Source of the DNA: an uncultured archaeon
Lineage (GTDB): Archaea; Asgardarchaeota; Hermodarchaeia; Hermodarchaeales; Hermodarchaeaceae
DNA length: 32,155 nucleotides
Reading direction: 5' to 3'
NCBI GenBank assembly: GCA_964347205.1
Contig: CAYFXY010000005.1
Coordinates: 5,109 to 37,263, forward strand
Shown here: positions 8,242-32,155 of the stretch, in pieces
How the letters are laid out: each line of letters begins with the position of its first letter
How positions within the stretch are numbered: the first letter of the stretch is position 1
Program-made: the position numbers and the translations under genes
Notes under the pieces: generated by a model
The model's database searches: none
Seen by the model: only the letters and a program-made list of their open reading frames with translations
Told to the model about the DNA's origin: nothing

Positions 8242-10329
8242 TTGCCCCCGAAGCTTCAAATCAACGAAGTAACTGCAAAAAGCATTCTCAATCCAAGTAG
8301 AATTAGCGGTGTAACTTATACCATCAATCCCTACGTAGGCTGCCAACATGCCTGCTCGTATTGTTTACATCCTTCTACTCGGATTCTAACAGAAAAAGGA
8401 ATGGAAGAGATTCAAAATGTTGTTCATAAAGAAAATTTACCATTGGTTATCACACATAAAGGAAGATTTCAAAAAATTGAAAGAACCTTTCAGCACCACT
8501 ATGATGGAGTCATTCGGCGTATTCAACTAAGGTATTATCGAGATTTTTCGATAACACCAAGTCATCAAATTTATGCAATCAAACGTACCAATTTAATTTG
8601 CGTAATGGATAGTTTTTCCCTCTGTTATCCAAATAGAACTGATAAGGGAACAAACAAAACAAGAAAGTGTAACGAATGTAAACGCAAACGGAAGGTACAT
8701 CCAAAATTACTTGAAGCTAAGGAACTTGAAAAGGGAGATTTAGTAATTGTGCCTATTCCCAGAGATTCTAAAGACGTAACGAATATTCGTGTTAGTGAAG
8801 TTCTTGCTGAAAGAGAATTTACAGATTTTATAGAGATTGATAAGAACAATTTTATTAAGTTCAAAAGAGGAAAAACTAGAATTCCTAATGAAATTCATTT
8901 AAGCAAAGAATTCTCACGTTTGGCAGGTTACTATGTTTCAGAGGGGAGTGTAATATCCAAATCTGGTCGACCAAATTCAGCAAGTCTGGTCTTTACTTTT
9001 CATGAGAAGGAAGATTTGTTCATTAATGATGTTTTCAGGTTACTAAAACGATTTTTCAATCTAGAACCAAAAATCAGAGCAGGTTCACTAAAAACTACCC
9101 GCGTTGAGATGGATTCGACAATCGTAGCTCGCATCTTTGAAACTTTGTTCGGTGACAGATCCAAAAATATGAAAATTCCTTCCTGGTTTCTTTTTCTACC
9201 TATTCATAAACAAAAGGAATTTCTTAAAGGGGCATTTAGGGGAGATGGAAGCGTTACAGATAATAAAAACCGTCCAACAGATTTTGTCACAACGTCACCA
9301 ATTATTCGCGATGCTGTACAGCTTATATTATTACGATTAGGCATTCCTTCTGTAATCTCAATCGCAAAAAAGGGTAAATTTCGTAAAAATGTTGCATTCA
9401 TCATCTTTCCAGCAGGAACTTTTAGGAAAGAATTTGTTGATATATTTGAACTTAGAAAAAACGTGAAAGAAGGACACAATATCTATGAGGGAAAAACTCG
9501 AGATTTTCTAATAGTTCCAATTAAGGAGATTGTTGACGAAAAATACCTTGGGCCGGTTTATAATTTACAGGTTCAAAATGATCAGACATACTTAGTGAAT
9601 TTTGTCGCTGTTTCGAATTGCTACGCAAGGTTCATGTCACGTTATACAGGTCATCAGGGGGAAAAGTGGGGCAGTTTTGTGGATGTTAAGGTCAACGCTC
9701 CGCGGGTCTTATTAGCTCAGTTACGTAAGCGAAAGAAACCCGTAAAAGACAGAGTCCTTCTTTCCAGTGTGACTGATGCATATCAACCCCTCGAGCGCCG
9801 TTACAAGATAACCCGCTATTGCTTAGAATTATTGAATCGGTATGAACTGCCAATCTCAATTCTTACAAAATCCGATCTGGTGTTACGTGACACAGATCTT
9901 TTTGTGAATTCTGTAGAAGCCGAAGTGGGTATGACAATAATAACCCTTGAGAACAAGGTCCGTCGCATCTTTGAATCCGGGGCTCCATCCAGTAGACGTC
10001 GTATAGAAGCATTGAAACAGCTCAACGCCCAAGGCATACGTACCTATGGTTTTGTTGGCCCTATTATCCCATCACTGAGTACACAGGATCTTGAAGAAAT
10101 TATCCGAAACCTTGCGGATAGCGGTGTTGCTTATGCATTTTTCGATCGATTAAATGTGAAGTATGGCATTCGTCCGGTCATTGAACAGGCTCTGCGAACC
10201 CATTTTGAAAAGGAGGCAAAACCCATTCTTAAGGCATTACGTTCCAGTAGCGAATATTATGAGAGGGTCCGGAATCAGATTATGGATTATTCAATGCAAT
10301 ATGACTTAGACGCCGATATAATTTTCTAA
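8242..10329 (+). CDS. SplB-like (COG1533, DNA photolyase-like) radical SAM protein precursor containing an intein
   Basis: The N-extein ends NPYVGCQHACSY. The C-extein begins CYARFMSRY and continues with SVTDAYQP and ILTKS blocks typical of this family. The spliced product would be 276 aa. The start is TTG with a GAGGA 5 nt upstream. Confidence 0.8.
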   Translation: MPPKLQINEVTAKSILNPSRISGVTYTINPYVGCQHACSYCLHPSTRILTEKGMEEIQNVVHKENLPLVITHKGRFQKIERTFQHHYDGVIRRIQLRYYRDFSITPSHQIYAIKRTNLICVMDSFSLCYPNRTDKGTNKTRKCNECKRKRKVHPKLLEAKELEKGDLVIVPIPRDSKDVTNIRVSEVLAEREFTDFIEIDKNNFIKFKRGKTRIPNEIHLSKEFSRLAGYYVSEGSVISKSGRPNSASLVFTFHEKEDLFINDVFRLLKRFFNLEPKIRAGSLKTTRVEMDSTIVARIFETLFGDRSKNMKIPSWFLFLPIHKQKEFLKGAFRGDGSVTDNKNRPTDFVTTSPIIRDAVQLILLRLGIPSVISIAKKGKFRKNVAFIIFPAGTFRKEFVDIFELRKNVKEGHNIYEGKTRDFLIVPIKEIVDEKYLGPVYNLQVQNDQTYLVNFVAVSNCYARFMSRYTGHQGEKWGSFVDVKVNAPRVLLAQLRKRKKPVKDRVLLSSVTDAYQPLERRYKITRYCLELLNRYELPISILTKSDLVLRDTDLFVNSVEAEVGMTIITLENKVRRIFESGAPSSRRRIEALKQLNAQGIRTYGFVGPIIPSLSTQDLEEIIRNLADSGVAYAFFDRLNVKYGIRPVIEQALRTHFEKEAKPILKALRSSSEYYERVRNQIMDYSMQYDLDADIIF
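8362..9618 (+). mobile_element. intein (419 aa) with LAGLIDADG homing endonuclease domain
   Basis: Block A is CLHPSTRILT with Cys1 at 8362. Block B is ITPSHQIYA. The LAGLIDADG motifs are LAGYYVSEGSV and FLKGAFRGDGSV. Block F is VYNLQVQNDQTYLVN. The terminal residues are VSN, followed by +1 Cys (9619-9621). This stretch looks more A/T-rich than the flanking exteins. Confidence 0.85.
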
Positions 10330-10341
10330 TTTCATCAATAA

Positions 10342-10662
10342 CTAGGTGTCTAAAGGTTCAGTAACGCCAGGAGCCCACCAGAACCAGGTTTTTCGTTTGA
10401 TGCTGAGTTTTCCATGAATTCTCCCTTCTTGCCTAAGCCGGTTGAGCAAGCGACTTGGCGAATCGGGGCAACCGATTTCATGGAGAAGTTGAGCGATTTC
10501 AGTAGTTGTCATTGGACGATTCGTATCATGCAGAATCATCTCAACTGCCTGTGCAGATTGTGTCTTCTTGTGTTTAAGCTCAGGTTTGGGTTCTTCTTTC
10601 AACGAAACTAGCCTCAGGTAAATACCCAGTTGGTAAATAAAAAAAGAGTGGAGTGGGGACAT
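10342..10662 (-). CDS. small winged-helix DNA-binding-like protein
   Basis: The segment MTTTEIAQLLHEIGCPDSPSRLLNRLRQEGRIHG has a helix-turn-helix plus wing pattern. The N-terminal 20 residues are doubtful. A TTG at 10602 is an alternative start. Confidence 0.4.
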   Translation of the reverse strand: MSPLHSFFIYQLGIYLRLVSLKEEPKPELKHKKTQSAQAVEMILHDTNRPMTTTEIAQLLHEIGCPDSPSRLLNRLRQEGRIHGKLSIKRKTWFWWAPGVTEPLDT

Positions 10663-10702: not shown

Positions 10703-11176
10703 TTAGATGGTCTTCAAATCACCAAGAATCATATCTTGGGTGTCTTTGTCTTCAACTTTGGTTGTTGCTTTCTCAGCAAGCTCAAGGTACTTACTTTTGT
10801 TCTTCTCATCCCCCAATACCGAATAACCTCGAGCGATTGCCTCATACGCGTAAGCGAGGTCCCAATCCTTGATGCCCTCTTTTTTACAGATATCGAGGTA
10901 GGTTGTCCCATAATGGACCGCGCGTTTTCCATCGCCAAGAACGGCGTAGACACGTGAAAGTTGCCAGTCACCGCGTCCAAGGTTGATGGGGGTAGCATCC
11001 CAGCCATTTTTGACGCGAACGCCCCAATGGTAACGTGAAGCATGAGAAGCATTGACTATAGAATCTTTTTCATCGTCGGTGAGTTTTTCTTTGTCTAGGT
11101 AATTCCAAGTTTCGTTAAAGAGATCAACGGCCATTTTTCGATGCCATTTTTCGAGAGAGATTTCTTCATTTGTCAT
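10703..11176 (-). CDS. conserved hypothetical helical-repeat (TPR-like) protein
   Basis: The ATG at 11176 is preceded by GGGAGG 5 nt upstream. The ORF track starts at 11227. The protein is all-helical with motifs ASHASRYHW and GDWQLSRVYAVLGD. The function is unknown. Confidence 0.55.
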   Translation of the reverse strand: MTNEEISLEKWHRKMAVDLFNETWNYLDKEKLTDDEKDSIVNASHASRYHWGVRVKNGWDATPINLGRGDWQLSRVYAVLGDGKRAVHYGTTYLDICKKEGIKDWDLAYAYEAIARGYSVLGDEKNKSKYLELAEKATTKVEDKDTQDMILGDLKTI

Positions 11177-11429
11177 TTCTATACCTCCCGAGTTACACCA
11201 GAATGAATTAGGTTCGCTTAAAAACATCTAGGGTTTTACTAGGTAACATGTGATGTTAAAATTGAATCAATTTTTTTGAAAACCCTAATGGGAATTGTGA
11301 TTCTTGTTACTCTGTCGAAATTTTTATTCATGATGGTGCAAGAATAGAACGAGATACAATAGTTCATTCGAACAATTTATCCATGAAGGGAGCTGTGACT
11401 GGGCGTTCACGAATGGCAAAACTTGGTGA

Positions 11430-11774
11430 ATGGTGAAGAAAATGATTAAGGCTATCTTTATTGTGATTAATGGAGCCTATGCATTTTCCCGGCAATATAC
11501 TGAACAAATTGACCCCCATTTGCTTTCTGGACTGCTTACAGCATTCCGTGTTTCGTCAAAAGAATTTGCTACAGGAGAATTTCGGCAAGCAAAATTTGAA
11601 GGCTCAGAAGTTTTTGTTGATGGACTTACAGAGCGTCCGAATGATTTTGTAGCCATCTTTGCCACACCCGAGGAGCGGGCAGCGGATCTCACGAATCTGA
11701 TGGCGCTTATGGTGAAAAGATTCACACCTGGGATAGCCTGCAAGGCCCCTTTTCAGATTTTGAACCCACCATAG
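11430..11774 (+). CDS. roadblock/longin-like small alpha/beta domain protein (probable 5' part of a split gene)
   Basis: An ATG start follows GGTGA. The pattern IKAIFIVINGAYAF...DPHLLSGLLTAFRVSSKEF...FVAIFATPEE parallels the cytoplasmic tail of the giant protein at 22729-23136. Confidence 0.55.
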   Translation: MVKKMIKAIFIVINGAYAFSRQYTEQIDPHLLSGLLTAFRVSSKEFATGEFRQAKFEGSEVFVDGLTERPNDFVAIFATPEERAADLTNLMALMVKRFTPGIACKAPFQILNPP

Positions 11775-11794
11775 ATCAAATCATCGCTGGTTGT

Positions 11795-12184
11795 GTGTGG
11801 TGCGATACTGAACAAATATTGGAACCCCCCAAGATTACTTTCACCACAGATTTGATTCCCGCAAAGGAAACCGTATACCGAGGGAATACCCTGAATGTCA
11901 AATACTATGTTCATAATAGTAGTGCTCAACCAATTTACTTAACCGCAATTGTCAATGCTATTCCCCAACTCTTCGAGATGGATGGATTAACTGAAAATGT
12001 TGTTTTACGCAGTACTGTGTTTCTGCGAAATCGATCACTTAAACCTGAAAAAGCATATGACACTGCTATTCCAATCAAAGCACGGCGAATTGGTCATACA
12101 GAAATTGCGCCAATTCTTTTCATCACTCAGGGCTCAAAAGCCTTTACGGTGCTAGGAGAAAACCGTGAGGTTGACATTATATAG
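11795..12184 (+). CDS. beta-sandwich (CARDB/DUF11-like) domain protein (probable 3' part of the same split gene)
   Basis: The frame is open from 11645. The upstream in-frame residues HTWDSLQGPFSDFEPTIDQII continue the homology to the giant protein tail (ENWEGRVDQFNGASDLVEEV). The rest shows an alternating beta-strand pattern. Confidence 0.5.
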   Translation: MWCDTEQILEPPKITFTTDLIPAKETVYRGNTLNVKYYVHNSSAQPIYLTAIVNAIPQLFEMDGLTENVVLRSTVFLRNRSLKPEKAYDTAIPIKARRIGHTEIAPILFITQGSKAFTVLGENREVDII

Positions 12185-14056: not shown

Positions 14057-16681
14057 ATGCGACCATCCAAGACTAAAACCTCACCTTCATCAGATGCTAT
14101 ACAAGAAAGCATAAGTGATCGTCTTTCTCGTCTTGTTGAAGCTACCGGAGCATTAGTAGTTGGAATAGATCGTAAAGGCCGAATTACCCTTTTTAATCGC
14201 AAGTGTGAAGAGGTGAGCGGATATTCTAGAAATAAGGCTTTAGGTAAATCCATATACTCACTACTAATTCCAAAAGAAGAACGCCTCAAAGCCAAAAAGC
14301 ATTTTCAAACCTTACTTGAAGGAAACATGTCGACTCAACAACTAGAAGTTCATTGGATAACCAAGAACGGGGAAAGCCGCCTCTTGCGTTTGAATAACAC
14401 GTATATCACTGATGAGCAGGGGAGAATTGTGGAACTTTTCGGAATTGGCACTGACCTTATCGAAGAAAAGATGGCAAAAGCCTCAATGAGGGACAGCGAA
14501 AAGGCCTATCGGGTATTGTATGAAAATCTTACAGAGGGTTTCATAATTATTGATACAAAGGGATTAATCACCACGGTGAACGAAGCTGCAACCCGAATTT
14601 TCGGATATGCCAAAGATGAAATAATTGGAAAACCCATACAGGAGTTTCTTTACCCAGATGATCGACAATTTGCCCTTGAGATATTTCAACAAGCCATTAA
14701 TACCCAAACTACCGCATCGAAAGGATGGGCATTAAGAGGTATACATAAGGATGGGTCAATCGTCGAATTTCAAATAACGAGCTCTCCAATACTCAGGGAA
14801 GGAGAAGTAGAAGGTATTCAATCAGTGATTCGTGACATCAGTCTGGAGAAGCAGATGGAAGAGGCCCTTAGAGAGTCGGAGGATAAATATCGGTCAATTG
14901 TAGAACAGTCACTTCAGGGGTTAGCCATTTTTCAAGACAATAAGCTTGCATTTGTAAATCAAGCAATAACGGATATCCTTGGTTATACCTCCGAAGAGAT
15001 GATGAGTTTTTCTCTTGATGAAATACGTGATATCCTTTATCCAGAAGATCAGGAAAGACTGTGGAGCCGTTTTGGAAAACAGGCTAAACATGAAGCTGAT
15101 TCGGCGAGATATGAAACCCGAACGCTTCGTAAGGATGGAAGTATTCGCTGGATTGAGGTTTACACAAACCTCATAACATATCAAGGAAAACCTGCAACCC
15201 AAGCAGCAATAATTGACATAACAGAGAGGAAAAATGCAGAGGCGGCCAAAGAAGAATCGGAGTCGCAATATCGAACCTTGGTTGAGACCTCCCCAGATGC
15301 AATCACGCTTACAGATTTGCAAGGAAATATTCTCATTGCAAATGAACAAACCCTTCGCCTTCATGGCTTTAAAACAATTGATGAACTCAAAGGAATGAGT
15401 GCGTTTTCATTAATTGCTCCCGAAGATCAAGAACGAGCTCTGACAAACCTCAAGAGAACCTTGGAAACAGGGTCGATTTCAAATATTGAATACACAATGC
15501 TTCGTAAAGATGGATCACGGTTTAGTGCGGAGCTAAATGCAGCACTATTGAGAGGAGCTAAGGGAGAACCCCGAGCGTTCATTGGAATTACACGAGATCT
15601 TTCTGAACGAAAGGCAGTTGAATCGCGTCTGAAGAGTCTCTTTGATCATGTTCCTGTGGGACTCTACCGGACGACTCCAGATGGCACAATCCTTGATGCA
15701 AATCCAGCATTAGTGGAAATTTTAGGTTTTAGTGAAAAAGAACAACTTCTTGAACGGAAGGCTTCTAGTTTCTATGTTGATCCTGCCGCGCGAAGAATCT
15801 GGGAAGCGACCGTGGCGCGAGAAGCCGTAGTAACTGGTGTGCAAGCTGAATTTCGACGTAAAAATGGAAAAAAAATCTGGGTTGAAATGAACACAAGAGC
15901 TATTCGTGACGCTGATGGGACAGTCTTATTTTATGAGGGCTCATTAAAGGATATTACTGAACGAAAGAAAGCAGAGCTAGAAATTTTAACTTCACAACGG
16001 CGAGCCGAATTTCTCGTCGATCTTATGGCCCACGACTTGAATAACATCAACCAAGGGATCATGTTATCTCTGGAGATCTTAGAAAATGATGATAGCATCT
16101 CAGAGCCAACAAAAGAAAAAGTCAGTTCAGCTCTGGCCCAAGTCGAACGAAGTGCAGAACTAATTGGAAATGTAAAACGATTTCAAATGCTTGATGCTGA
16201 ACCACTCAGCCTTAGCACTCGGGATCTTGCACCAGCTTTTTTTGCTGCAGTGCATGCAGTAGAGAGAGCATTCCCACAGAAAACCCTTCTATTAACAACG
16301 AATATACAGGAGAAGCAATATTTTGTTACTTGCGATGGTTTCCTTACCGAGCTTTTTTTCAATCTTCTCCATAATGCTTTGAAAGCTGATCAAAGTGAAA
16401 TTGTCAAAATAGAGGTTCACGCTGAACCAAAAAATGGTGATTCGATTATTAAAGTTCAAATCATGGATCAAGGACCAGGAATTCCAGATTCAGAAAAAAA
16501 ACGAATATTTGCTCGCTATTCTGAAAGACACGAAGGCGTTCGAGGTTCAGGCATCGGACTTACATTAGTCCAACGGATCATTAACCGGTATGGTGGAAAA
16601 ATATGGGTTGAAGACCGGGTGAAAGGAAAGTATTCCCAAGGTGCGAATTTTGTGATTCTATTACCAAGGGGGGAAGAGTAA
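14057..16681 (+). CDS. cytoplasmic sensor histidine kinase with five PAS domains
   Basis: There are five PAS/PAC-like repeats, each ending in an I(T/S)E(R/E)K-type linker. The H-box is LMAHDLNNINQG, the N-box is LLHNALKA, G1 is DQGPGI and G2 is GSGIGL. There is no TM segment. AGGTGA lies upstream of the ATG. Confidence 0.9.
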   Translation: MRPSKTKTSPSSDAIQESISDRLSRLVEATGALVVGIDRKGRITLFNRKCEEVSGYSRNKALGKSIYSLLIPKEERLKAKKHFQTLLEGNMSTQQLEVHWITKNGESRLLRLNNTYITDEQGRIVELFGIGTDLIEEKMAKASMRDSEKAYRVLYENLTEGFIIIDTKGLITTVNEAATRIFGYAKDEIIGKPIQEFLYPDDRQFALEIFQQAINTQTTASKGWALRGIHKDGSIVEFQITSSPILREGEVEGIQSVIRDISLEKQMEEALRESEDKYRSIVEQSLQGLAIFQDNKLAFVNQAITDILGYTSEEMMSFSLDEIRDILYPEDQERLWSRFGKQAKHEADSARYETRTLRKDGSIRWIEVYTNLITYQGKPATQAAIIDITERKNAEAAKEESESQYRTLVETSPDAITLTDLQGNILIANEQTLRLHGFKTIDELKGMSAFSLIAPEDQERALTNLKRTLETGSISNIEYTMLRKDGSRFSAELNAALLRGAKGEPRAFIGITRDLSERKAVESRLKSLFDHVPVGLYRTTPDGTILDANPALVEILGFSEKEQLLERKASSFYVDPAARRIWEATVAREAVVTGVQAEFRRKNGKKIWVEMNTRAIRDADGTVLFYEGSLKDITERKKAELEILTSQRRAEFLVDLMAHDLNNINQGIMLSLEILENDDSISEPTKEKVSSALAQVERSAELIGNVKRFQMLDAEPLSLSTRDLAPAFFAAVHAVERAFPQKTLLLTTNIQEKQYFVTCDGFLTELFFNLLHNALKADQSEIVKIEVHAEPKNGDSIIKVQIMDQGPGIPDSEKKRIFARYSERHEGVRGSGIGLTLVQRIINRYGGKIWVEDRVKGKYSQGANFVILLPRGEE

Positions 16682-22294: not shown

Positions 22295-22369
22295 AGTCTT
22301 TTGTGCCGAGGTGGCGGAGTGGCCACGCGACAGCCTGCAGAGCTGTTCTATGTGGGTTCAAATCCCACC
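22295..22369 (+). tRNA. tRNA-Cys (anticodon GCA), CCA encoded
   Basis: The cloverleaf was folded by hand. The acceptor stem is GCCGAGG/CCTCGGC. The D arm is GCG(G)-AGTGGCC-(A)CGC. The anticodon stem is ACAGC/GCTGT with loop CTGCAGA. The variable loop is 5 nt. The T arm is GTGGG-TTCAAAT-CCCAC. The discriminator is T, followed by CCA. Confidence 0.85.
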
Positions 22370-22455
22370 CTCGGCTCCACTTTCTCCTCGTTATTAGATT
22401 TAGTAACCAGTCTTCAAAGAACACAAGGATCTGAAATATGAGTCACGATTAAGGT

Positions 22456-25400
22456 TTATGCCGCGGAGGGCTCTGGAAGTCCCATGGGCGCTAGTTGTAT
22501 CGGGATGAATGCTTTCTTCATTCGTAATTGGTAAATTGCCATAAGTGCTTCTAACTTATCGGTCTTGGCTGCAGCTAGATAGGTACTCAAGATTTGACCT
22601 AAAAAGATGTATTCGCGATCCTTGGTTAATTCCTTTGAGAGTTTGAAGATATCCGATTCAAGAGAGGAGAGGTGAGCGCCGCGTGGTTTGCGAGCGGCTA
22701 CACGATGTGGATGTCGGAGTGAGATAAGAAAGACTTCTTCAACAAGGTCGGAGGCACCATTGAATTGATCAACACGACCTTCCCAGTTTTCGAAATCAGA
22801 TTTGTACCGGCGTTCAAATGCTTGTGTAAACGCTTCGAGCCGTTCACGAAGCTGTTCACTAGGGGTTCCACTAAGCACTAATGCATTTCGAACAAATTTC
22901 CCATCATGAATGAGAATTCGAAATCCCTCATATTGGAGTTCCCTAAGCGTTGTTACTTCGGCTTTGTTGCCATTAGCAAGACCAGGGCTGTCAGCTAAGT
23001 CGTGACCAAAAGTTGAAATGGCTTGCAGGAATCCAGCCACAAGTGTTGCATCTTGACTTTCTTCAGCAAATGGATCAAAGACGCAAATTCCACTTTCTTT
23101 ATGGAGCACTAAAAGCCGGTTGAGATTCGCGACGTCACTGAAGGTATCAGCAATAGCCTGATACTTCGCTAATCTTTTTTGGCGTTTCGGAATGAGAACA
23201 TAGCGACGATATGTTAGCACCGAGCCCAATGGAACTATTACGATAATTGCTGCTATAAGGGCGATGATTGGTAAGTTAGCCATGAGAAGAGACCCGAAGG
23301 ACATGACATTCACGCTAAGAGGACCACCATTGTATTCAAGTGGCATATTCAGCATTGCTGCATAATTTTCTGCGCCTTCGATGGTGAGATAGAAATTGTA
23401 CTCTCCTTCAAGATCTAATAAGCCTTCGAAAGAAATCCAGCCATCATCGCCAACATATCCGACGAGGGGAGGAGGATTGCCACTAGTAGTAGTAATAGAA
23501 AGTGTGACTTTCGTACCGACGGGAAGGAAAGTCATCCCAGGTTGATGACTACTTAGACTCTTTAACGTAGTCGAAATTTGTTGAGAACTTGCGTTTTCAA
23601 GATAGAATTGGATATTCATCCACCATTCTAATCCCTGGTTCGGGACCGCATCAGGAAGAGATAATTCGAGATTATAGCCGATGGAATTCTTGGACCGAAT
23701 CACCAATGTTATTGTTGCTATCGAATCTACAAAATCCCGAGCTTCAGCGTATAAGGTTACGTTATAGGTTCCTGCAGGCAGGTTTGACGTATCCAAGGCT
23801 GGAATCTCGTATAAGCCTAACCCGGGAGTGGCTAAGATTAAGGTCGTATTTCCTAAACCAGGGACCTCTGCGGTAATTGTTCCGTGACTAAGATCTTCAC
23901 CGTTGAGTGCATCGCGAAGAATGACGCGTAAAATCACTGGGTGTTCGCTCGTAGGATATGTCCAGTCTTCATAGAGGACAAGTTGCTGATATTCAGCAGG
24001 GATACTGATATACGAGGGACGCGGTCGGGGTGAAACATTGATAGTATCAGACCAAGTTGATTCATATCCAAATTTTGCAGCATAAATTATTATGTACGCT
24101 GGATCTCCTTCATGGAAAACAAAGGCTCCAATAGGATTCGTGTCAATCGTTATATTGTATAAGCCGGGTTTGGTGGGATCAATGATAGAAAGGTCAACCC
24201 AATCCAATCGTTTGGCGACTCCACGGTTTTCGTGGATAATGTATGGAGCAAGCTGCGCGCCAGTTATCGGCAGACCAAAATCATCTGTGTACCTGATAGT
24301 GAATTGGAGCGTAGTATCGTTGATGAACGGATCTGGATCTGTGAACCAAACATCGGTAATATTGTTGAGACCCGGAAGAGGTTGTCCTTCATAGAAAAAG
24401 ACAATATGTGTACTTCGCGTAAATACTAGAAACTGTTTGGTGACGTTCTGTCCCTCATTAAAGGGTGATGTGACCGTTAGCGTGATGTTGTGTAAGATGT
24501 TAATGGACGCATTCACAGTGAAAAGAAACGCAGTGTAGTATCCCGGGAAGCCTTCGCTCGCCCAGTTATACCATTCGTAGTCCACATTTAGATCGGTTAG
24601 AGAAAGTCCCCATTCAAGGCCACTGGTATCATTATATACTGTCAAAACTGCATCATTGATGGGAAATCCAAATTGATTGTGATAATACACTTCGATTTGG
24701 ACCCAATCACCACGAATCACTGGTTCACCGGGTGGTGGAAACTCATAGGTTACGATCAGGATAGTTTGCATGTAAACCTCGAGCGTTTGAGCATTTAGTC
24801 CTGCCTCCGTTCCATTTGCCCAAAGTATATGGAGCGTATACACACCAGCGTAAGTCGATGTAGCCCAGATTGACCAATTAATTTCAACCATCCCCCCAGG
24901 AGGCACGGGGAGCACAGAATAGTTCAGTGCGTTATATTCATCATTTGAGTCGTAAACAATAAGATAACCAAACCCCGTGGTTGCATTTTCCCCAGAGTCG
25001 TCTTCAACATATCCGCGGGTACGGATTAGATCACTGGCGTTAGCCATTGTGATCACTTGACCCGCCTGATTTAGAACCTCAGAGTATTGCATATAATCCG
25101 GTGATTCACATAATAGAGTCCATTGTCCATCGCCTGCACCATAGATTTCGACCCACCACCCACTGGTGGGAGAATACCTATAGCCCCAAGAGAGATGTAT
25201 GAGCCCGTCATGTAACACTTGATGGACAGTCCAGTCATCTTCTATAGATATGGAGATCACCATGTCAATTGCATTGGTTGGAAAATCAATAACAGTGGTC
25301 ACATTCCAATCAACCCAATCATCATAAGCCCACGCTGTAAACCGTGAAGTAGCAAAGAGTGTTTCATAGAACCAGCCCATCCACGTTACATCATAAGTTA

Positions 25401-26211
25401 AACCAGGACCACCATATGTAACATTATAGTATCGTTTAGCATTCGTCATATTAATTGCCGGTGAATGCCATCCACCATCCCAAAAACCTACTCCAGGCCG
25501 TGGCCAAAGATCAAAAACAGGCGTACCATTAACTGTCATGCCAATTTCACTGGGGTAAATATAGCGATCAAATTGAGTACCGAGAAAGAAATCGATCGAA
25601 GGACCTGAAATAAAATCTAAGTTAGGCCAAGTTAACGAATACCATGCATCACCTTCGTCTTCCCCATCACCATCGGGAGGAACCCCCACATCTTCCATAC
25701 ATACCCACGCCATGGCTGCTCCAGTCATCATCGTTATTGCAAAATAGAATGTGCCAGCGTAAGTCATCGAGGAATCTAATAATATCGGCATAATAGTTGG
25801 GAATGAAGTCCATCGTTCCTCACCTCTTGGAATGTCTATATATTCTTGCATCCATGGGGCGACTTGATTCCCAAGATCAGGTTCTGTCCCTAAACCAGAC
25901 GTTCCGCTTGGAGCAGCAGAATAGATAGTAAAATTGACGTCCCCTTGTGTTTGCGGATTTGGAGGGTCTGGTGAATAGAGATAAAGAGCAAACTCATTGA
26001 TCCGAACAGGAAAACGCCCTGTTAAATTAAAGGCCATGAAAACGATTTCACCAGGATAGGCCTTTTCATCCATCTGCCAGAAATAAATCCAACCTGGCGG
26101 CGCCATCGGATCATAATCTTCCACCATCAGAAAGTCTTTCTTAGTGAGGATGGTTCCAATGCGGGTGAAATTACTAACATCATGATACATCATTCCCTTT
26201 TCAATTGTCAC
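22456..26211 (-). CDS. giant single-pass surface glycoprotein with cytoplasmic roadblock/longin-like and winged-helix-like tail
   Basis: The 1251-aa ORF has about 970 aa rich in aromatic and beta-strand residues, carrying 23 N-x-S/T sequons by my count. One TM helix, LLMANLPIIALIAAIIVIVPLGSVLTY, lies at 23209-23289 and is followed by RRYVLIPKRQKRLAK (positive-inside). The remaining 250 aa form the tail. The GTG start lacks a signal peptide (see the finding for 26208-26430). Confidence 0.8.
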   Translation of the reverse strand: MTIEKGMMYHDVSNFTRIGTILTKKDFLMVEDYDPMAPPGWIYFWQMDEKAYPGEIVFMAFNLTGRFPVRINEFALYLYSPDPPNPQTQGDVNFTIYSAAPSGTSGLGTEPDLGNQVAPWMQEYIDIPRGEERWTSFPTIMPILLDSSMTYAGTFYFAITMMTGAAMAWVCMEDVGVPPDGDGEDEGDAWYSLTWPNLDFISGPSIDFFLGTQFDRYIYPSEIGMTVNGTPVFDLWPRPGVGFWDGGWHSPAINMTNAKRYYNVTYGGPGLTYDVTWMGWFYETLFATSRFTAWAYDDWVDWNVTTVIDFPTNAIDMVISISIEDDWTVHQVLHDGLIHLSWGYRYSPTSGWWVEIYGAGDGQWTLLCESPDYMQYSEVLNQAGQVITMANASDLIRTRGYVEDDSGENATTGFGYLIVYDSNDEYNALNYSVLPVPPGGMVEINWSIWATSTYAGVYTLHILWANGTEAGLNAQTLEVYMQTILIVTYEFPPPGEPVIRGDWVQIEVYYHNQFGFPINDAVLTVYNDTSGLEWGLSLTDLNVDYEWYNWASEGFPGYYTAFLFTVNASINILHNITLTVTSPFNEGQNVTKQFLVFTRSTHIVFFYEGQPLPGLNNITDVWFTDPDPFINDTTLQFTIRYTDDFGLPITGAQLAPYIIHENRGVAKRLDWVDLSIIDPTKPGLYNITIDTNPIGAFVFHEGDPAYIIIYAAKFGYESTWSDTINVSPRPRPSYISIPAEYQQLVLYEDWTYPTSEHPVILRVILRDALNGEDLSHGTITAEVPGLGNTTLILATPGLGLYEIPALDTSNLPAGTYNVTLYAEARDFVDSIATITLVIRSKNSIGYNLELSLPDAVPNQGLEWWMNIQFYLENASSQQISTTLKSLSSHQPGMTFLPVGTKVTLSITTTSGNPPPLVGYVGDDGWISFEGLLDLEGEYNFYLTIEGAENYAAMLNMPLEYNGGPLSVNVMSFGSLLMANLPIIALIAAIIVIVPLGSVLTYRRYVLIPKRQKRLAKYQAIADTFSDVANLNRLLVLHKESGICVFDPFAEESQDATLVAGFLQAISTFGHDLADSPGLANGNKAEVTTLRELQYEGFRILIHDGKFVRNALVLSGTPSEQLRERLEAFTQAFERRYKSDFENWEGRVDQFNGASDLVEEVFLISLRHPHRVAARKPRGAHLSSLESDIFKLSKELTKDREYIFLGQILSTYLAAAKTDKLEALMAIYQLRMKKAFIPIQLAPMGLPEPSAA

Positions 26212-26420
26212 CTGATAATCGGAATCCCTATCCCGATTGGTAAATGTTTGTGAGATATTCCATCGAGTTTGGGTGAGCCGAAGTGAACCAGATGCAGATT
26301 GATGATCCGGAACTCCGGGAGATTGGAGACTAGGAGCAGATAACGAGGAAGGAATGTTGGAACAAATGGTAGTATTAACATAGAAAGTAGAAAGAACGAG
26401 ATGATTTGGATTCGCCTCAT
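26208..26420 (-). CDS. signal-peptide-bearing short ORF, probably the displaced 5' end of the giant gene
   Basis: MRRIQIISFFLLSMLILPFVPTF is a classic n-region plus h-region. Its TGA overlaps the GTG of the giant ORF (GTGA). The giant frame itself stays open upstream to 26430 with Ser/Thr/Pro-rich sequence. Confidence 0.45.
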   Translation of the reverse strand: MRRIQIISFFLLSMLILPFVPTFLPRYLLLVSNLPEFRIINLHLVHFGSPKLDGISHKHLPIGIGIPIIR

Positions 26421-26659
26421 AATTACCACCTTAATCTAATGATTTTGCCAATGCAGCCGCAATGGTGGGGTCCACCAACTCTCAAGAGGGCTAGTTCCCT
26501 CCTCAAAGTACATCTAGAGCCGTGAAATACGCGTTCTTAAGTATTTGTCTAGATGGTTCATAGATGAAAAATAGTTGCATTCCGAACAAGACTCAAGAGA
26601 GTAGCCTATAAGTGAGAAAGACGAGTAGAGTGGTGTATCCAGATAGAGGAGAAGATCAC

Positions 26660-27112
26660 ATGCGAGATTTCGTAAATTTCGTGGCAACCCGAAGAAGTAT
26701 TCGAAAATATCGCGATACGCCAATTTCTCGCAAGCAAATCCTCGGCTTTATCAAAGCCGCAACTTGGGCACCTTCAGCACACAATGCCCAACCATGGCGA
26801 TTCTATATTTTGTCATCAACCTCTACGAAAAAGCGCTTGGCGAAAGCAATGGCTGCAGCGTATCGATTTGATTTAGAATCCGATGGTGAAAAACCAAAGA
26901 ATATTACATCATTGGTGAATGCATCAGTGACACGCTTTTCAAATGCGCCAGTGTTAATTTTGGCTTGCTTATCGATGCAATCAATGGATTCGTATCTTGA
27001 CGAGAAACGCCAACAGGCAGAATATGTAATGGCAGCACAGAGCGTTGCAGATGAAGTGCCGGATGACCCTAAAAGAATTTCACCCGAAGGGATCACGACA
27101 TTCGTTGACTAG
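26660..27112 (+). CDS. nitroreductase-family protein (FbiB C-terminal-like), apparently lacking the C-terminal core
   Basis: RRSIRKY and SAHNAQPWRF are nitroreductase hallmarks. The central RFSNAPVLILAC and EYVMAAQSVA blocks resemble F420-associated nitroreductases. The expected QN..LAA..GLG..W segment is absent. The ATG at 26660 is preferred over the GTG at 26612. Confidence 0.55.
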   Translation: MRDFVNFVATRRSIRKYRDTPISRKQILGFIKAATWAPSAHNAQPWRFYILSSTSTKKRLAKAMAAAYRFDLESDGEKPKNITSLVNASVTRFSNAPVLILACLSMQSMDSYLDEKRQQAEYVMAAQSVADEVPDDPKRISPEGITTFVD

Positions 27113-28099: not shown

Positions 28100-28170
28100 T
28101 TCCCAGAATGGGTGAAGAGAAAGGATTAACTTTTATACGGGGCGCACGGCTGATTCAGGCGGGAGCCACA

Positions 28171-29625
28171 ATGATTCAGATCTATAATACGCTCTCACGG
28201 AAAAAAGAAGTATTCAAACCACTTCATGAGGGCGAAGTCCGGATGTATGTGTGTGGACCAACGGTTTATGATTCAAGCCATTTAGGTCATGCCCGGTCTA
28301 TTGTGGCTTTCGATGTTATCCGTCGATACCTTGAATACAAGGGCTTTGATGTCCGCTTTATCCAGAACTTTACAGATATCGATGATAAGATGATTCAACG
28401 GGCCCAAGAACTTGGCAAATCGACCACAGAGTTGGCAACCAAATACATTCAGGAATATTTTGCAGATTTTGATAAATTGGGCGTTAAACGCGCAACGGCA
28501 TTTCCAAAGGCTACAGAGCATATTCCAGATATGATTAAGCACATCCAGGCCTTGATTGAGAAGGGCTATGCCTACGTTGTTAATGGAAGCGTGTATTTCC
28601 GAGTTTTGAAATTTAAGCGATACGGAAAATTATCACGGCAAGAAAAAGGTGAAAGGGATACCCAGGATCCAGAAGCGGGTATCCTTGAGGAGAAAGAGCA
28701 GCCAGAAGATTTTGTCTTATGGAAGGTTATGAAACCGGGGGAACCGACATGGGATTCACCGTGGGGAAAAGGTCGACCGGGCTGGCATATTGAATGCTCT
28801 GTGATGTCTACGAAATACTTGGGTGAACCAATTGATATTCATGGAGGAGGATTAGACCTTGTATTTCCACATCATGAAAACGAAATTGCTCAATCAGAGG
28901 CCTTGACAGGAAACCCCTTTGTTAAATATTGGATGCACAACGGTTTCCTCACCGTCAATAGAGAGAAGATGTCGAAATCCTTAGGGAATTTTTTCACAAT
29001 ACAAGAGATAACTGCAAAATATGATCCAGAAGTTGTTCGCTTATTCTTAATATCATCACAGTATCGGAGCCCCATTGATTTCAGTGATGCTCACCTCGAA
29101 GAAGCGAAAAACCGACTAGCCCGTATTCATAACGCAATTGATATTCTTCAACGGCAACTTCAAGAAAGTCTCATTGCAGAAGCAGAAGACCCAAGAGTTC
29201 CCTCTTCAGCTGATACTGAGCTTTGGGAGAATTTAACGAAATTCCGTATGGAGTTTGAAGCGGCAATGGATGATGATTTTAATACCCCCGTAGCCTTAGC
29301 GGGTTTGAGCAAGTTTTTATCTCAATTGAATTCGGTGTTTGGTCGAAATCAATCGGTGACTGCTGGTACATTGCAAAAAATCTTCGAGACGTTGGATGTA
29401 ATTGGTGAAGTTTTTGGCTTATATCGTTCACGCATGAAGGTAAGTGGAACAGAGGGACTGGACGAATCTAGAGTCGAGGGACTGGTTCAACTGCTGATTG
29501 GGCTTCGTGCGCAAGCGCGGAAAAAGAAAGACTTCAAAACAGCTGATCAGATTCGAGGTCAATTAAAGGCCTTGGGGATTGTTATCGAAGATGAAAAAAC
29601 AGGAACTACATGGAAGTGGGCTTGA
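28171..29625 (+). CDS. cysS: cysteine--tRNA ligase
   Basis: The class I motifs are HLGHAR (HIGH) and KMSKS. The blocks MYVCGPTVYD, WHIECS and HGGG.DL.FPHHENE are CysRS-specific. The MIQIYNTL start at 28171 matches the usual N-terminus. The ORF track starts at the ATG at 28108. Confidence 0.9.
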   Translation: MIQIYNTLSRKKEVFKPLHEGEVRMYVCGPTVYDSSHLGHARSIVAFDVIRRYLEYKGFDVRFIQNFTDIDDKMIQRAQELGKSTTELATKYIQEYFADFDKLGVKRATAFPKATEHIPDMIKHIQALIEKGYAYVVNGSVYFRVLKFKRYGKLSRQEKGERDTQDPEAGILEEKEQPEDFVLWKVMKPGEPTWDSPWGKGRPGWHIECSVMSTKYLGEPIDIHGGGLDLVFPHHENEIAQSEALTGNPFVKYWMHNGFLTVNREKMSKSLGNFFTIQEITAKYDPEVVRLFLISSQYRSPIDFSDAHLEEAKNRLARIHNAIDILQRQLQESLIAEAEDPRVPSSADTELWENLTKFRMEFEAAMDDDFNTPVALAGLSKFLSQLNSVFGRNQSVTAGTLQKIFETLDVIGEVFGLYRSRMKVSGTEGLDESRVEGLVQLLIGLRAQARKKKDFKTADQIRGQLKALGIVIEDEKTGTTWKWA

Positions 29626-30908
29626 TGATGAAGGCGCTAATACTTGCTGCGGGGTATGGAACTCGATTGCATCCACTCACACAATATCGGCCGAAAGCTA
29701 TGCTACCGCTCCTTGGAAAACCCATGCTGCATCATGTAATCGAAATAGTCCGTGAAGCGGGTATGAAAGAGATTGTGCTCGTCGTGGGACATTTTCGCGA
29801 CCAAATTGAGGAGTACTTTGGGGATGGGGACTCGCTTGGAGTTAACATCAGTTATGCTGTACAGGCGGAACCAAAGGGTGAGTTTGATGCAGTTCTTGCT
29901 GCGGAAAAAGAACTCGCTGGCGATGATAGGTTCCTTATGACTGATTGTGATATTATAAGCACAACGGTCCGGTTTCAAGAAACGCTCAACGCCGCAAAAA
30001 CTGATGGCATGGCACTCTCATTAGTAGAAGTTCCAAATCCTTGGCAATTTGGAGTTGTGGCTTTAGATGGGACAAAAATCACAACGATTATCGAGAAACC
30101 GCAAAAGGGTACGGAACCGAGTAATCTAGCTGTAGCTGGCGTCTATGTCTTTTCAAATGCGATTTTTGATGCCATACGAAAGACGCAGGATTTGGAAGTT
30201 GGAATTCAGCAGCTCATCGATGAAGGACACACTGTTTATGGAAGCCATTCGAAAGAGGACTGGGTTGATGTAGGACGCACTTGGAACGTATTAGAGGCGT
30301 CTCCCATTTTATTTGAGCGCCTCCGCCAACAAAAAAAAGGTGAATGGATTGATTCCTCTGCATCGGTCAGTGAAGCAGCACATATTAGTGGGGATGTATG
30401 GATTGGTCCCCATGCGCGAATCTTTCCTGGCGCAGCAGTAGTAGGACCGGTGTATGTAGGAGCAAATGCTATTGTGGGAAACAACTGCCTTATCCGTGAT
30501 TACACCGTTCTGGATAAGGATGTGCGTGTTGGATTTTCCTGTGAGGTGCGGAATACAGTAATTATGCCAGGAAGCAGTATAGGACACTTAGCCTTTGTGG
30601 GAGATAGTATTCTCGGATTTAGTGTTGAGCTTGGAGCCAGCGTAGTTTTATCTAATTATCGCTTTGATGGAGCTGAAGTACACGTAATGCTTCGCTACGA
30701 ATTAGTATCCACACATACTGACAAATTTGGTTCAGTGATTGGAGATTTCGCGAAAGTTGGTTGTGGTGTGGTCACATTACCAGGACGAACAATTGGTTAT
30801 AACTCATGGATTGATCCCGCTATTGTTGTCCAAAAAGATGTGCCCGATAATACTCATTTGCATCTTACACAATCATATACAAAAGAAAAGCGACGCCCAA
30901 CTATCTAA
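29625..30908 (+). CDS. bifunctional sugar-1-phosphate nucleotidylyltransferase with left-handed beta-helix acyltransferase domain (GlmU/ST0452-like)
   Basis: The N-terminal LILAAGYGTRLHPLT motif marks an NTP-transferase fold. The C-terminal third has hexapeptide-repeat character. The ATG overlaps the cysS TGA (TGATG). Confidence 0.75.
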   Translation: MMKALILAAGYGTRLHPLTQYRPKAMLPLLGKPMLHHVIEIVREAGMKEIVLVVGHFRDQIEEYFGDGDSLGVNISYAVQAEPKGEFDAVLAAEKELAGDDRFLMTDCDIISTTVRFQETLNAAKTDGMALSLVEVPNPWQFGVVALDGTKITTIIEKPQKGTEPSNLAVAGVYVFSNAIFDAIRKTQDLEVGIQQLIDEGHTVYGSHSKEDWVDVGRTWNVLEASPILFERLRQQKKGEWIDSSASVSEAAHISGDVWIGPHARIFPGAAVVGPVYVGANAIVGNNCLIRDYTVLDKDVRVGFSCEVRNTVIMPGSSIGHLAFVGDSILGFSVELGASVVLSNYRFDGAEVHVMLRYELVSTHTDKFGSVIGDFAKVGCGVVTLPGRTIGYNSWIDPAIVVQKDVPDNTHLHLTQSYTKEKRRPTI

Positions 30909-32155
30909 TTACCCGACGAAGACTCATCTTTGCATCTTTAAGTAAGGTTTTTGCACGCTTTGGTGCGAGAGCTTCAACAGTAATACGTATTACTGGTTCA
31001 GTTCCTGAAGGACGGATGAGTACCCAACTTGAATCTGAAAAACTGACACGGACACCATCAAGCTGATTCACATCCTCTACATCTAACCACGTTTCAATTG
31101 TTTCAGCTATCTGAGCTATTGCTGGGTTCTTCTGATCATTTGGGCAACTCACGGATGCACGTAATAGATAGGTAGTAGGGAGGTCATCTACCAAACTGCT
31201 TAGGGGCCGTTTCGCCCAATCGAGAAGTTCGAGAATTTTACATGCAGCTAAAGGACCGTCTGGGCAGTAGTGGACTTCGGGAAAAATGAAGGGTCCTGAG
31301 GGTTCTGCCCCAAGCACCGCGTTATGTTTTTTGACTAAGTTAGACACGAATACATCACCTACCCGACAACGCTCGACCCGCGCTCCGTGTTGTTTTGTGA
31401 TGAGATCCACAACGCTTGAACTGGAAACTGTAGTTGCAATGACTTTTCCCCCTCGGGTAGAAAGGTAATAGTCAGCAACTAAGGCAAGAAGGATGTCACC
31501 TGCTAGAACACGACCTTTATCATCTACAGCAAGAATTCGGTCAGCATCACCATCATGAGCGAGTCCAATCTCAGCTCTTGTTGCTTGAACGATTTTACTG
31601 AGGTCATCTAGACACACAAAATGCTGCCATTCTGCAGCAGCGGCACTTTGAATTTTTGAGGGTCCACAGTGCTGAGCATATTCTTTGCCGTTTGGTGGAG
31701 TATTGAGGGTCTCTACATTTGCATTGAGCTTTTGTAAAGCAATTGGAGTTACTAGTCCCCCCACACCGAGAGCTGCATCCAAGACAACATGATGCGAAGA
31801 AGTTACCTCACAAGCTTGAAATAATGCCTTGATATGGAGCGAGATGGGTTCGCAATAACTGAACTTGGCAAAAGATTCCCAAGACACTGATTTAGCAATC
31901 TGCAGATATTGTTCGATTTCGTATTGTTGTGTGATGGAAAATCCGGCACCATCTGGGTTATGGAATTTGAATCCATTATATTCCGGAGGATTATGACTCG
32001 CCGTTACGATTAATGAAGCACTCATCCCCTCTTTTCCTGCTGCATAAGCAATTGTTGGAGTGGGAGCCATTCCCGCTTTATATACTCGAATCCCACCTTG
32101 AAGTAATCCAGCGATTAAAGCGGAGGTAAGCATTGGTCCGGTGGTTCGATGATCA
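30901..32155 (-). CDS. phosphoglucosamine/phosphomannomutase family (alpha-D-phosphohexomutase), 5' end beyond the window
   Basis: The active-site loop is TASHNPPEYNGFK and the metal loop is HDGDADR. The frame stays open through the window edge (..DHRTTGP before the annotated Met), so the true start lies outside. It converges on the nucleotidyltransferase gene with an 8-nt overlap. Confidence 0.8.
   Translation of the reverse strand, partial: DHRTTGPMLTSALIAGLLQGGIRVYKAGMAPTPTIAYAAGKEGMSASLIVTASHNPPEYNGFKFHNPDGAGFSITQQYEIEQYLQIAKSVSWESFAKFSYCEPISLHIKALFQACEVTSSHHVVLDAALGVGGLVTPIALQKLNANVETLNTPPNGKEYAQHCGPSKIQSAAAAEWQHFVCLDDLSKIVQATRAEIGLAHDGDADRILAVDDKGRVLAGDILLALVADYYLSTRGGKVIATTVSSSSVVDLITKQHGARVERCRVGDVFVSNLVKKHNAVLGAEPSGPFIFPEVHYCPDGPLAACKILELLDWAKRPLSSLVDDLPTTYLLRASVSCPNDQKNPAIAQIAETIETWLDVEDVNQLDGVRVSFSDSSWVLIRPSGTEPVIRITVEALAPKRAKTLLKDAKMSLRRVIR

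Follow-up and report, generated by a model that had tools for sequence, protein, structure and literature searches.

What kind of protein joins a long, sequon-rich ectodomain to a folded cytoplasmic module, and in which organisms is such a protein found? The question is raised by a stretch of 32,155 nucleotides from contig CAYFXY010000005.1 (GenBank assembly GCA_964347205.1, an uncultured archaeon of the Hermodarchaeaceae), which we refer to as a whole as the window. Positions 22456..26211 on its minus strand hold an open reading frame (ORF) of 1251 amino acids (aa), for which the first listed start codon, GTG, is arbitrary. An earlier reading made from the letters alone (hereafter, the sequence-only reading) described this product as a giant surface protein with one transmembrane (TM) helix, a cytoplasmic roadblock- or longin-like module and a winged-helix-like (WH) end. 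We conclude that it is the Hermodarchaeota-type ortholog of a very large, unnamed and apparently Asgard-specific family of type I surface glycoproteins; the architecture is new and makes use of a known fold class. The listed ORF is divided as follows.

23290..26211, minus strand: ectodomain, residues 1-974 of the listed ORF.
23212..23289, minus strand: single TM helix, residues 975-1000; Kyte-Doolittle maximum 2.87 over 19 residues, the sole such segment.
23161..23211, minus strand: basic juxtamembrane stretch YRRYVLIPKRQKRLAKY, residues 1001-1017; a positive-inside signal.
22714..23160, minus strand: predicted longin/roadblock-class domain, residues 1018-1166; helix a0, then b1 b2 a1 b3 b4 b5 a2 a3, from AlphaFold2 (AF2) and Foldseek.
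22666..22713, minus strand: basic linker and short strand, residues 1167-1182, with a near-invariant P1168-H1169 motif.
22495..22665, minus strand: predicted winged-helix-like domain, residues 1183-1239; H1, short strand, H2, H3 and wing strand, from DSSP on the AF2 model.
22456..22494, minus strand: low-confidence C-terminal tail and stop codon, residues 1240-1251.

T, G, Y, W and N abound in the ectodomain; its 23 N-x-S/T sequons (x not P) all fall within residues 14-873 and correspond to a density of about one per 42 residues. In 2000 shuffles of the ectodomain, the expected count was 7.4 +/- 2.4 and a value of 23 never occurred; sequons are absent from the tail of 251 aa. Our recount agrees with the sequence-only reading, which had reported 23 sequons in an ectodomain of ~970 aa and none in the tail. 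The ectodomain frame remains open upstream to ~26340, adding one further sequon (NIS). The ectodomain contains no Pfam domain, and a profile search against PDB sequences was likewise without a match. The TM helix and its basic inner flank had also been proposed from the letters, at coordinates within a few codons of ours. YRRYVLIPKRQKRLAKY contains 7 K/R in 17 residues, and K/R are absent from the outer flank of the TM helix. A Sec-type signal peptide (known from orthologs, and out of frame in this assembly), sequons in the ectodomain, one TM helix and a positive-inside flank together identify a type I single-pass protein. As judged from these sequence signals, a cytoplasmic location of the tail is supported, because the ortholog signal peptide, the restriction of sequons to the ectodomain and the positive-inside flank all put it inside the cell.

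We modelled the tail with AF2 from an alignment of 32 diverse modules (in tail numbering, residue 1 is protein residue 1018). The model reached a predicted local distance difference test (pLDDT) score of 90.5 and a predicted TM-score (pTM) of 0.83; an earlier run with 10 close orthologs had given a pLDDT of 46.8 and was unusable for the alpha/beta domain. YRRYVLIPKRQKRLAKY is modelled as a helix, and the helix after it passes straight into the first strand of the module. In tail numbering, DSSP assigns a0 to residues 2-12, b1 to 13-20, b2 to 26-28, a1 to 38-56, b3 to 72-77, b4 to 80-86, b5 to 90-96, a2 to 102-124 and a3 to 131-149, followed by a short strand. Thus, no loop separates a0 from b1, and a2 and a3 both come after b5. 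The longin order is b-b-a-b-b-b-a-a (PMC3747258), and the alpha/beta domain of the tail matches that order (bb-a-bbb-aa, after the juxtamembrane helix) rather than the classic roadblock.

When the model was compared with the PDB by Foldseek, all 50 of the 50 listed matches were roadblock or longin proteins, with E-values of 9e-4 to 8e-3 and probabilities that were mostly 1.0 (0.91-1.0). Target TM-scores for single-domain targets were mostly 0.42-0.69, the highest being 0.69. The roadblock matches included dynein LC7, LAMTOR/MP1-p14, Rag C-terminal domains and Streptomyces 3kye, and the longin matches included MON1A-CCZ1, AP sigma, COPI zeta, Sec22b, Ykt6 and Fuzzy. Because the listed matches are exclusively of these two kinds, assignment of the modelled domain to the longin/roadblock fold class is supported, at modest E-values and without sequence-family membership. 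The sequence-only reading had placed an alpha/beta module of roadblock/MglB or longin type at about 22729-23136; it maps to 22714-23124 (residues 1030-1166), close to that claim; its element order is of the longin type, and the structural comparison points to no unrelated fold. At the level of sequence, no Pfam, NCBIfam or PDB family matched the protein, the tail profile or its relatives, and none of these searches tied it to a characterised family. Pfam scans of the 32 modules and of 15 relatives returned no consistent family, the one Fuz_longin_1 match among the 32 modules (E 0.26) being non-significant.

The last 70 aa had been described as resembling a small winged helix. In tail numbering, the model has H1 at 166-178, a one-residue bridge, H2 at 187-197, H3 at 202-214 and a strand at 218-220, with a block-averaged pLDDT that is mostly >90, and the predicted domain is compact and packed against the longin-like domain. 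The topology therefore stands in the AF2 model, with no significant structural match to go with it: the WH proteins that Foldseek returned (SarX, LexA and the WH of RPC39, at E 0.8-9) were non-significant and were obtained with the poor model of pLDDT 46.8. Mean net charge is ~+0.9 over the WH region and 0.0 in H3, which has conserved E, I, L, A, I, Y, L positions; the region lacks a basic, polar recognition helix and wing. Because the domain is near neutral and H3 is hydrophobic, DNA docking appears unlikely, and the sequence argues for a role in protein docking or packing. Of the regulatory fold joined to a possible DNA- or protein-docking helix bundle that the sequence-only reading envisaged, the longin/roadblock fold has held up, and DNA docking is disfavored on charge.

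We ran phmmer exhaustively against 1.84 billion cluster representatives (clusters at 50% identity); relatives of the ~220-aa tail module numbered 917 at E<=1e-3 and 461 at E<=1e-10, with the whole module matched as one unit. A word-indexed homolog search with the 32-sequence profile gave essentially the same nine close orthologs. When the fusions were tabulated, the module was mostly found behind a sequon-rich ectodomain and a TM; this plan is common to most of the 149 best representatives, whose N-terminal regions carry up to 108 sequons. In most representatives the TM ends 7-30 residues before the module, its position 10-25 residues ahead of the module being shared by most family members and the window protein, and after the module there is either the end of the protein or an extension of ~190 aa or ~390 aa. 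Short forms of ~250 aa, with TM and module, also occur among the representatives, and at least some of these are fragments.

The named members and genomes are all Asgard (Hermod-, Hod-, Odin-, Hel-, Loki- and Promethearchaeota) and include Candidatus Harpocratesius repetitus and the cultured Candidatus Lokiarchaeum ossiferum (WP_371805894.1, 2640 aa). The sole exception is a contig (L031, DATKTP010000001.1) in a bacterial metagenome-assembled genome (MAG) of Candidatus Deferrimicrobium; it is nearly collinear with Helarchaeota loci and was probably misbinned. The module family appears to be specific to Asgard archaea. Full-text searches of the literature found no description of this architecture, in line with the earlier remark that the combination was not recognised as a described signalling family; the family may be listed anonymously among the 130 Roadblock/LC7-superfamily clusters of orthologous genes of Asgard archaea (asCOGs).

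Within the family, conservation is far higher in the tail module than in the ectodomain. The close homologs of the tail (73-88% identity) are encoded in MAGs that bear the label Hermodarchaeota or Promethearchaeota. Among the Hermodarchaeota relatives, identity to the window protein is 33-66% in the ectodomain, 62-89% in the longin-like domain (82-89% in the five closest relatives) and 57-84% in the WH domain. Over 138 modules, the most conserved elements are a1, with the signature D-x2-L-[IV]-x-G-F-L-x-A-[IV]-x2-F, and b5, where an arginine (R1108) is conserved in 127/138. The turn before b2 reads K-x-S-G-[I/V/T/L]; its glycine, G1041, is present in 136/138 modules and is never followed by P. 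Ectodomains vary between paralogs, one having FG-GAP and Ig-like domains and most having no Pfam domain. Some genomes carry three paralogs in a row. In L032:1-6630 and L034:3-6630, three tandem paralogs of ~595+, 759 and 758 aa lie on one strand, and 4 kb downstream of those in L032 is a gene for a soluble protein of 281 aa that likewise has the longin-like domain. The tail profile also found stand-alone, soluble versions of the longin-like domain near family genes at other loci.

One such soluble relative lies in the window itself.

11430..12184, plus strand: soluble longin-like gene, with an N-terminal longin-like domain and a beta-rich C-terminal half; two ORFs in different frames.

The sequence-only reading had taken this gene to be a second copy of the tail module. 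Among the window ORFs, it is the best non-self match of the tail profile (E 2e-4), and an hhalign comparison of the two gave a probability of 89% and an E-value of 2e-6 over 122 columns; BLASTP gave nothing significant. Homology to the alpha/beta domain of the tail is limited to the N-terminal ~125 aa, and the WH part is absent. Hence the claim is right for the longin-like domain and wrong for the module as a whole, and the gene is frameshifted besides. Intact orthologs are single, highly conserved 255-aa proteins, and the window copy is missing ~25 nt (IKTAFISN) near 11712-11720, which splits the frames. Upstream of the gene, by ~770 bp and on the opposite strand, is a gene for a 106-aa protein with a TBPIP/Hop2-type winged-helix match (10342-10662, minus strand; E 1.9e-5), and between the two is a 174-aa ORF of no known family (10703-11227).

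The 5' end of the surface-protein gene is damaged in a similar way. The listed 1251-aa ORF has no signal peptide, and its frame, open as it is upstream of the listed start, contains no start codon there in a three-frame translation. Two further features, both on the minus strand, lie in this region.

26352..26420, minus strand: signal peptide MRRIQIISFFLLSMLILPFVPTF, inside a small ORF (26208-26429) in a frame that differs from that of the main ORF.
26325..26355, minus strand: approximate site of a deletion and frameshift, from three-frame translation and alignment to ortholog N-termini.

The small ORF encodes 73 aa, has its ATG at 26420 and begins with MRRIQIISFFLLSMLILPFVPTF, which aligns with the N-termini of the full-length orthologs L001 (GCA_012974985.1), L009 and L011. 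These N-termini consist of a signal peptide, a low-complexity linker of 50-60 aa and then a conserved ...RLTQLTWNISQ... segment. Because the orthologs carry both signal peptide and linker, we conclude that the window sequence has a deletion and a frameshift near 26325-26355, so that ~45 aa of linker are absent and the signal peptide is split from the ectodomain frame. The nitroreductase gene (26612-27112, plus strand) is likewise short, encoding 166 aa with ~45 internal residues fewer than its 211-aa syntenic ortholog in L001. Counting the 255-aa longin-like gene as well, three genes within 32 kb are affected, a pattern suggestive of faulty assembly or consensus calling, or else of a decaying genome. 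The surface-protein gene may accordingly be interrupted between signal peptide and ectodomain by a sequencing or assembly defect, or it may be a decaying copy; the closest relative compared has ~77% nucleotide identity.

The L001 ortholog was also considered as a Rosetta-stone pair, given that it is called as two genes of ~1091-1094 aa and 274 aa. We rejected this, as the split is a scaffolding artefact: an NN gap at L001:9890-9910, flanked by duplicated sequence, cuts the ortholog into two called genes, so that the architecture is shown wrongly in the public annotation of this MAG.

We then turned to the gene neighborhood, for which 110 loci were examined (35 of them in reference genomes, 69 in metagenomes and 6 retrieved by exact look-up). 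Across the MAGs that encode close homologs, synteny extends downstream of the surface-protein gene (PhoU-like, PNP, ApgM and tRNA-Cys) and upstream of it (nitroreductase, CofD, cysteinyl-tRNA synthetase, NTP-transferase and PMM). The sequence-only reading had pointed to small Ras/Arf-like GTPases as neighbors to look for, and here the outcome was divided. A Ras-superfamily GTPase gene lies at most 4 genes away in ~6 of ~11 independent ortholog groups. In one of these (L033 and L035, counted as a single instance because they are 95% identical), it is 60-93 bp downstream on the same strand, and in a Loki subfamily, a ~360-aa GTPase is encoded ~1 kb upstream, two genes away and usually divergently. 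None was found within 4 genes in the ortholog group of the window, or in the Hod, Hel and tandem-array groups. Small GTPases make up ~2% of Asgard genes, and on that basis the proximity is above chance; yet it is suggestive only, because the grouping was made post hoc and synteny among relatives accounts for much of the signal.

The Loki subfamily just mentioned, which has the ~190-aa C-terminal extension (L038, L041 and many of L042-L105), has strongly conserved neighbors. On the upstream side these are an ATP-grasp_5 protein, directly adjacent, and, two genes away, the ~360-aa Arf/Ras/Roc GTPase; downstream, in convergent orientation, is an unannotated protein of ~421 aa. A 185-aa protein encoded in the same orientation as an Arf-like GTPase (L020:8916-9994, minus strand; also L018, L019, L021, L023 and L026) was considered as a soluble longin plus WH paralog and was rejected, since hhalign showed no relation to the tail module. 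It has an alpha/beta N-domain with I-D-G-P-F before the second strand, which recalls the GP motif of longins of the GTPase-activating protein (GAP) type, and a C-terminal segment resembling a winged helix-turn-helix (wHTH). In 5/6 loci its gene abuts or overlaps that of the 175-aa Arf-like GTPase.

Several other genes of the window were recorded. A tRNA-Cys(GCA) gene (22305-22379, plus strand) lies 76 bp past the stop codon of the gene for the surface protein; 6 kb away is the gene for cysteinyl-tRNA synthetase (28108-29625, plus strand), and the Hermodarchaeota relatives share this arrangement. At 8242-10329 (plus strand), a 695-aa radical SAM protein is broken by an intein whose homing-endonuclease domain is of the LAGLIDADG type (Pfam LAGLIDADG_3, Intein_splicing). 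An 874-aa histidine kinase (14057-16681, plus strand) has at least 5 PAS domains and C-terminal HisKA and HATPase_c, with no response regulator seen alongside. A phosphoglucomutase/phosphomannomutase ORF (30901-32133, minus strand) matches the domain I profile only from position 55 onwards and starts just 22 nt short of the end of the window; its N-terminus appears truncated or shifted.

How does the protein compare with known systems? The closest known combination is that of NPRL2/NPRL3 of GATOR1, in which a longin domain is followed by one or more wHTH domains in one chain (PMC3747258), a likeness that concerns the architecture only. Asgard genomes encode many NPRL2-like longin families and fusions (Liu et al., bioRxiv 10.1101/2020.10.19.343400). 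The NPRL2/3 heterodimer has both an arginine finger and a GP motif, and in GAP-type longins (FLCN, NPRL2, SMCR8, C9orf72) that motif is in the loop before b2 (PMC12290439). However, NPRL2/3 are soluble, whereas in the window protein the module forms the cytoplasmic end of a type I glycoprotein and lacks the GP motif; RagA apart, no GATOR1 chain was among the listed Foldseek matches. MglB and stand-alone roadblock proteins (dynein LC7, LAMTOR2/3, Streptomyces 3kye) share the alpha/beta sandwich, at target TM-scores of 0.45-0.68. The roadblock/LC7 order is a-bb-a-bbb-a, in contrast to the window tail, in which the first helix runs on into b1 and there is a pair of helices after b5. Unlike MglB-type proteins, the window domain is anchored to the membrane by a TM helix in the same chain, which also includes a WH domain and an ectodomain of ~970 aa; the domain has no PF03259 match, and the window has no adjacent MglA-like gene.

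The highest target TM-scores were among those of longin SNAREs and adaptors (Sec22b 1ifq, 0.65-0.69; AP sigma, 0.49-0.66), and Sec22b, Ykt6, VAMP7, AP sigma and COPI zeta are membrane-associated trafficking proteins. In SNAREs, however, an N-terminal, cytosolic longin domain comes before a SNARE motif and a tail anchor at the C-terminus, whereas in the window protein the TM lies ahead of the longin domain, there is no evident SNARE motif and the greater part of the chain is extracellular. The tri-longin Rab guanine nucleotide exchange factors (Mon1-Ccz1, Fuzzy-Inturned, HPS1-HPS4) appear at Foldseek ranks 2 (9lol_B), 17, 26, 29 and 39, and a stand-alone relative of the domain gave a sub-threshold Fuz_longin_1 match (E 0.053) covering most of the profile; those proteins have three longin domains and the window protein has one. 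On the outer side, a signal peptide, a large beta-rich ectodomain and a comparable sequon density recall archaeal S-layer and surface glycoproteins (PMC11284389). These end in a short TM or a PGF-CTERM anchor, in contrast to the 250-aa folded module of the window protein, which scores 9.5 bits against NCBIfam halo_surf_glyco (TIGR04216; cut-off 400).

What might such a protein do? Our favored reading, to which we assign a probability of about 0.45, is that it is a receptor- or adhesin-like surface glycoprotein whose longin domain is a docking platform for a cytosolic partner, probably a small GTPase. The variable, fast-evolving and heavily N-glycosylated ectodomain would bind an external partner (cells, polymers or particles), while the longin domain would be held ~17 residues from the membrane. 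Longin domains of two chains would pair through b3 and a1, and the conserved face of a1 would form the platform that docks the partner, most probably a Ras-superfamily GTPase. The WH-like domain would extend the protein-docking surface or stabilise it, rather than bind DNA, and the cell surface would thereby be coupled to the GTPase-controlled cytoskeleton, to membrane shape and to the organisation of surface proteins. Known longin and roadblock dimers form GTPase platforms via b3/a1 and their single-helix face, a1 being part of both the dimer interface and the GTPase-binding face (PMC3747258), and it is by analogy with these that we infer dimerisation, the kind of partner and any signalling for the window protein. 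Several observations weigh on the other side. Neither the 32-kb window nor the surroundings of any Hermodarchaeota ortholog contain a GTPase gene, and the neighborhood signal elsewhere is weak, being a post hoc count that partly reflects synteny among close relatives. The tail has no sequence-level membership in any Pfam longin or roadblock family (including PF03259) and lacks the GP motif of GAP-type longins, the winged-helix call is one of modelled topology only, and the signal peptide is out of frame in this assembly.

Many of the same facts would also fit a passive coat or adhesin anchor, in which the protein is a glycocalyx component and the module oligomerises or is tied to a sub-membrane scaffold (e.g., actin) for the spacing, sorting or turnover of surface proteins, with neither GTPase nor signalling. 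Asgard cells have no ordered S-layer and carry numerous complex, irregular surface proteins in its place (PMC9834061), the family is very large with variable, sequon-rich ectodomains, no operon partner is consistent and none is present in the window, and longin and roadblock domains serve above all for dimerisation (PMC3747258). Yet a plain anchor would have no need of a two-domain module of 220 aa kept at 62-89% while the ectodomain drifts to 33-37%, nor would one expect the most conserved element to be a1, the partner-binding face of known longin and roadblock platforms, or GTPase genes to recur nearby in several independent groups; on balance we consider a passive anchor possible, if rather unlikely. 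Far less probable is a membrane-tethered transcription factor, whose WH domain would bind DNA at the membrane or after proteolytic release and so report occupancy of the ectodomain. The wHTH topology of the C-terminal domain invites this idea, as does the fact that the sole interpretable Foldseek matches there, non-significant as they were, are WH proteins. Yet the WH domain has a net charge of ~+1 and a putative recognition helix of net charge 0 with conserved hydrophobic positions, it is modelled as one rigid unit with an acidic longin domain (pTM 0.83), and it is near-identical across hundreds of paralog clusters and would therefore provide no promoter specificity.

Whether the window copy is itself a dead or mis-assembled gene is a question orthogonal to the function of the family. 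If the frameshift were real, the 1251-aa product would not be exported and would represent a decaying copy of a functional family, as the signal peptide in another frame, the missing linker and the internal deletions of the 255-aa longin-like and nitroreductase genes might suggest. Against this, the 1251 codons are open and highly conserved, with identity reaching 89% in the tail, the syntenic orthologs are intact, and for as many as three lesions in 32 kb an error of assembly or consensus seems likelier than selection; we regard a dead gene as distinctly unlikely. The favored docking-platform reading also has a bolder form, which we hold to be doubtful, in which the family comprises massively expanded Asgard single-pass receptors whose longin and WH platform, on the inner side of the membrane, recruits or regulates Ras-superfamily GTPases, as a prokaryotic forerunner or analogue of the coupling of receptor or cargo to GTPase and adaptor in eukaryotes.

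Asgard archaea encode many small GTPases and longin and roadblock proteins whose cellular roles are unexplained. A family of surface glycoproteins with a shared longin-type tail would join two puzzles, that of the Asgard surface proteome and that of the expansion of GTPase-regulatory folds. It would offer candidate identities for the densities seen on Asgard surfaces and a concrete membrane site where eukaryote-like GTPase regulators could act, and because one member is encoded by the cultured Lokiarchaeum ossiferum, direct experiments are possible. If the receptor and GTPase-platform reading is true, these proteins would have a role in cell-cell contact, protrusion dynamics or the sorting of surface proteins. 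Eukaryotes use longin and roadblock domains to control small GTPases, and the family may link the surface of Asgard archaea to eukaryote-like intracellular machinery.

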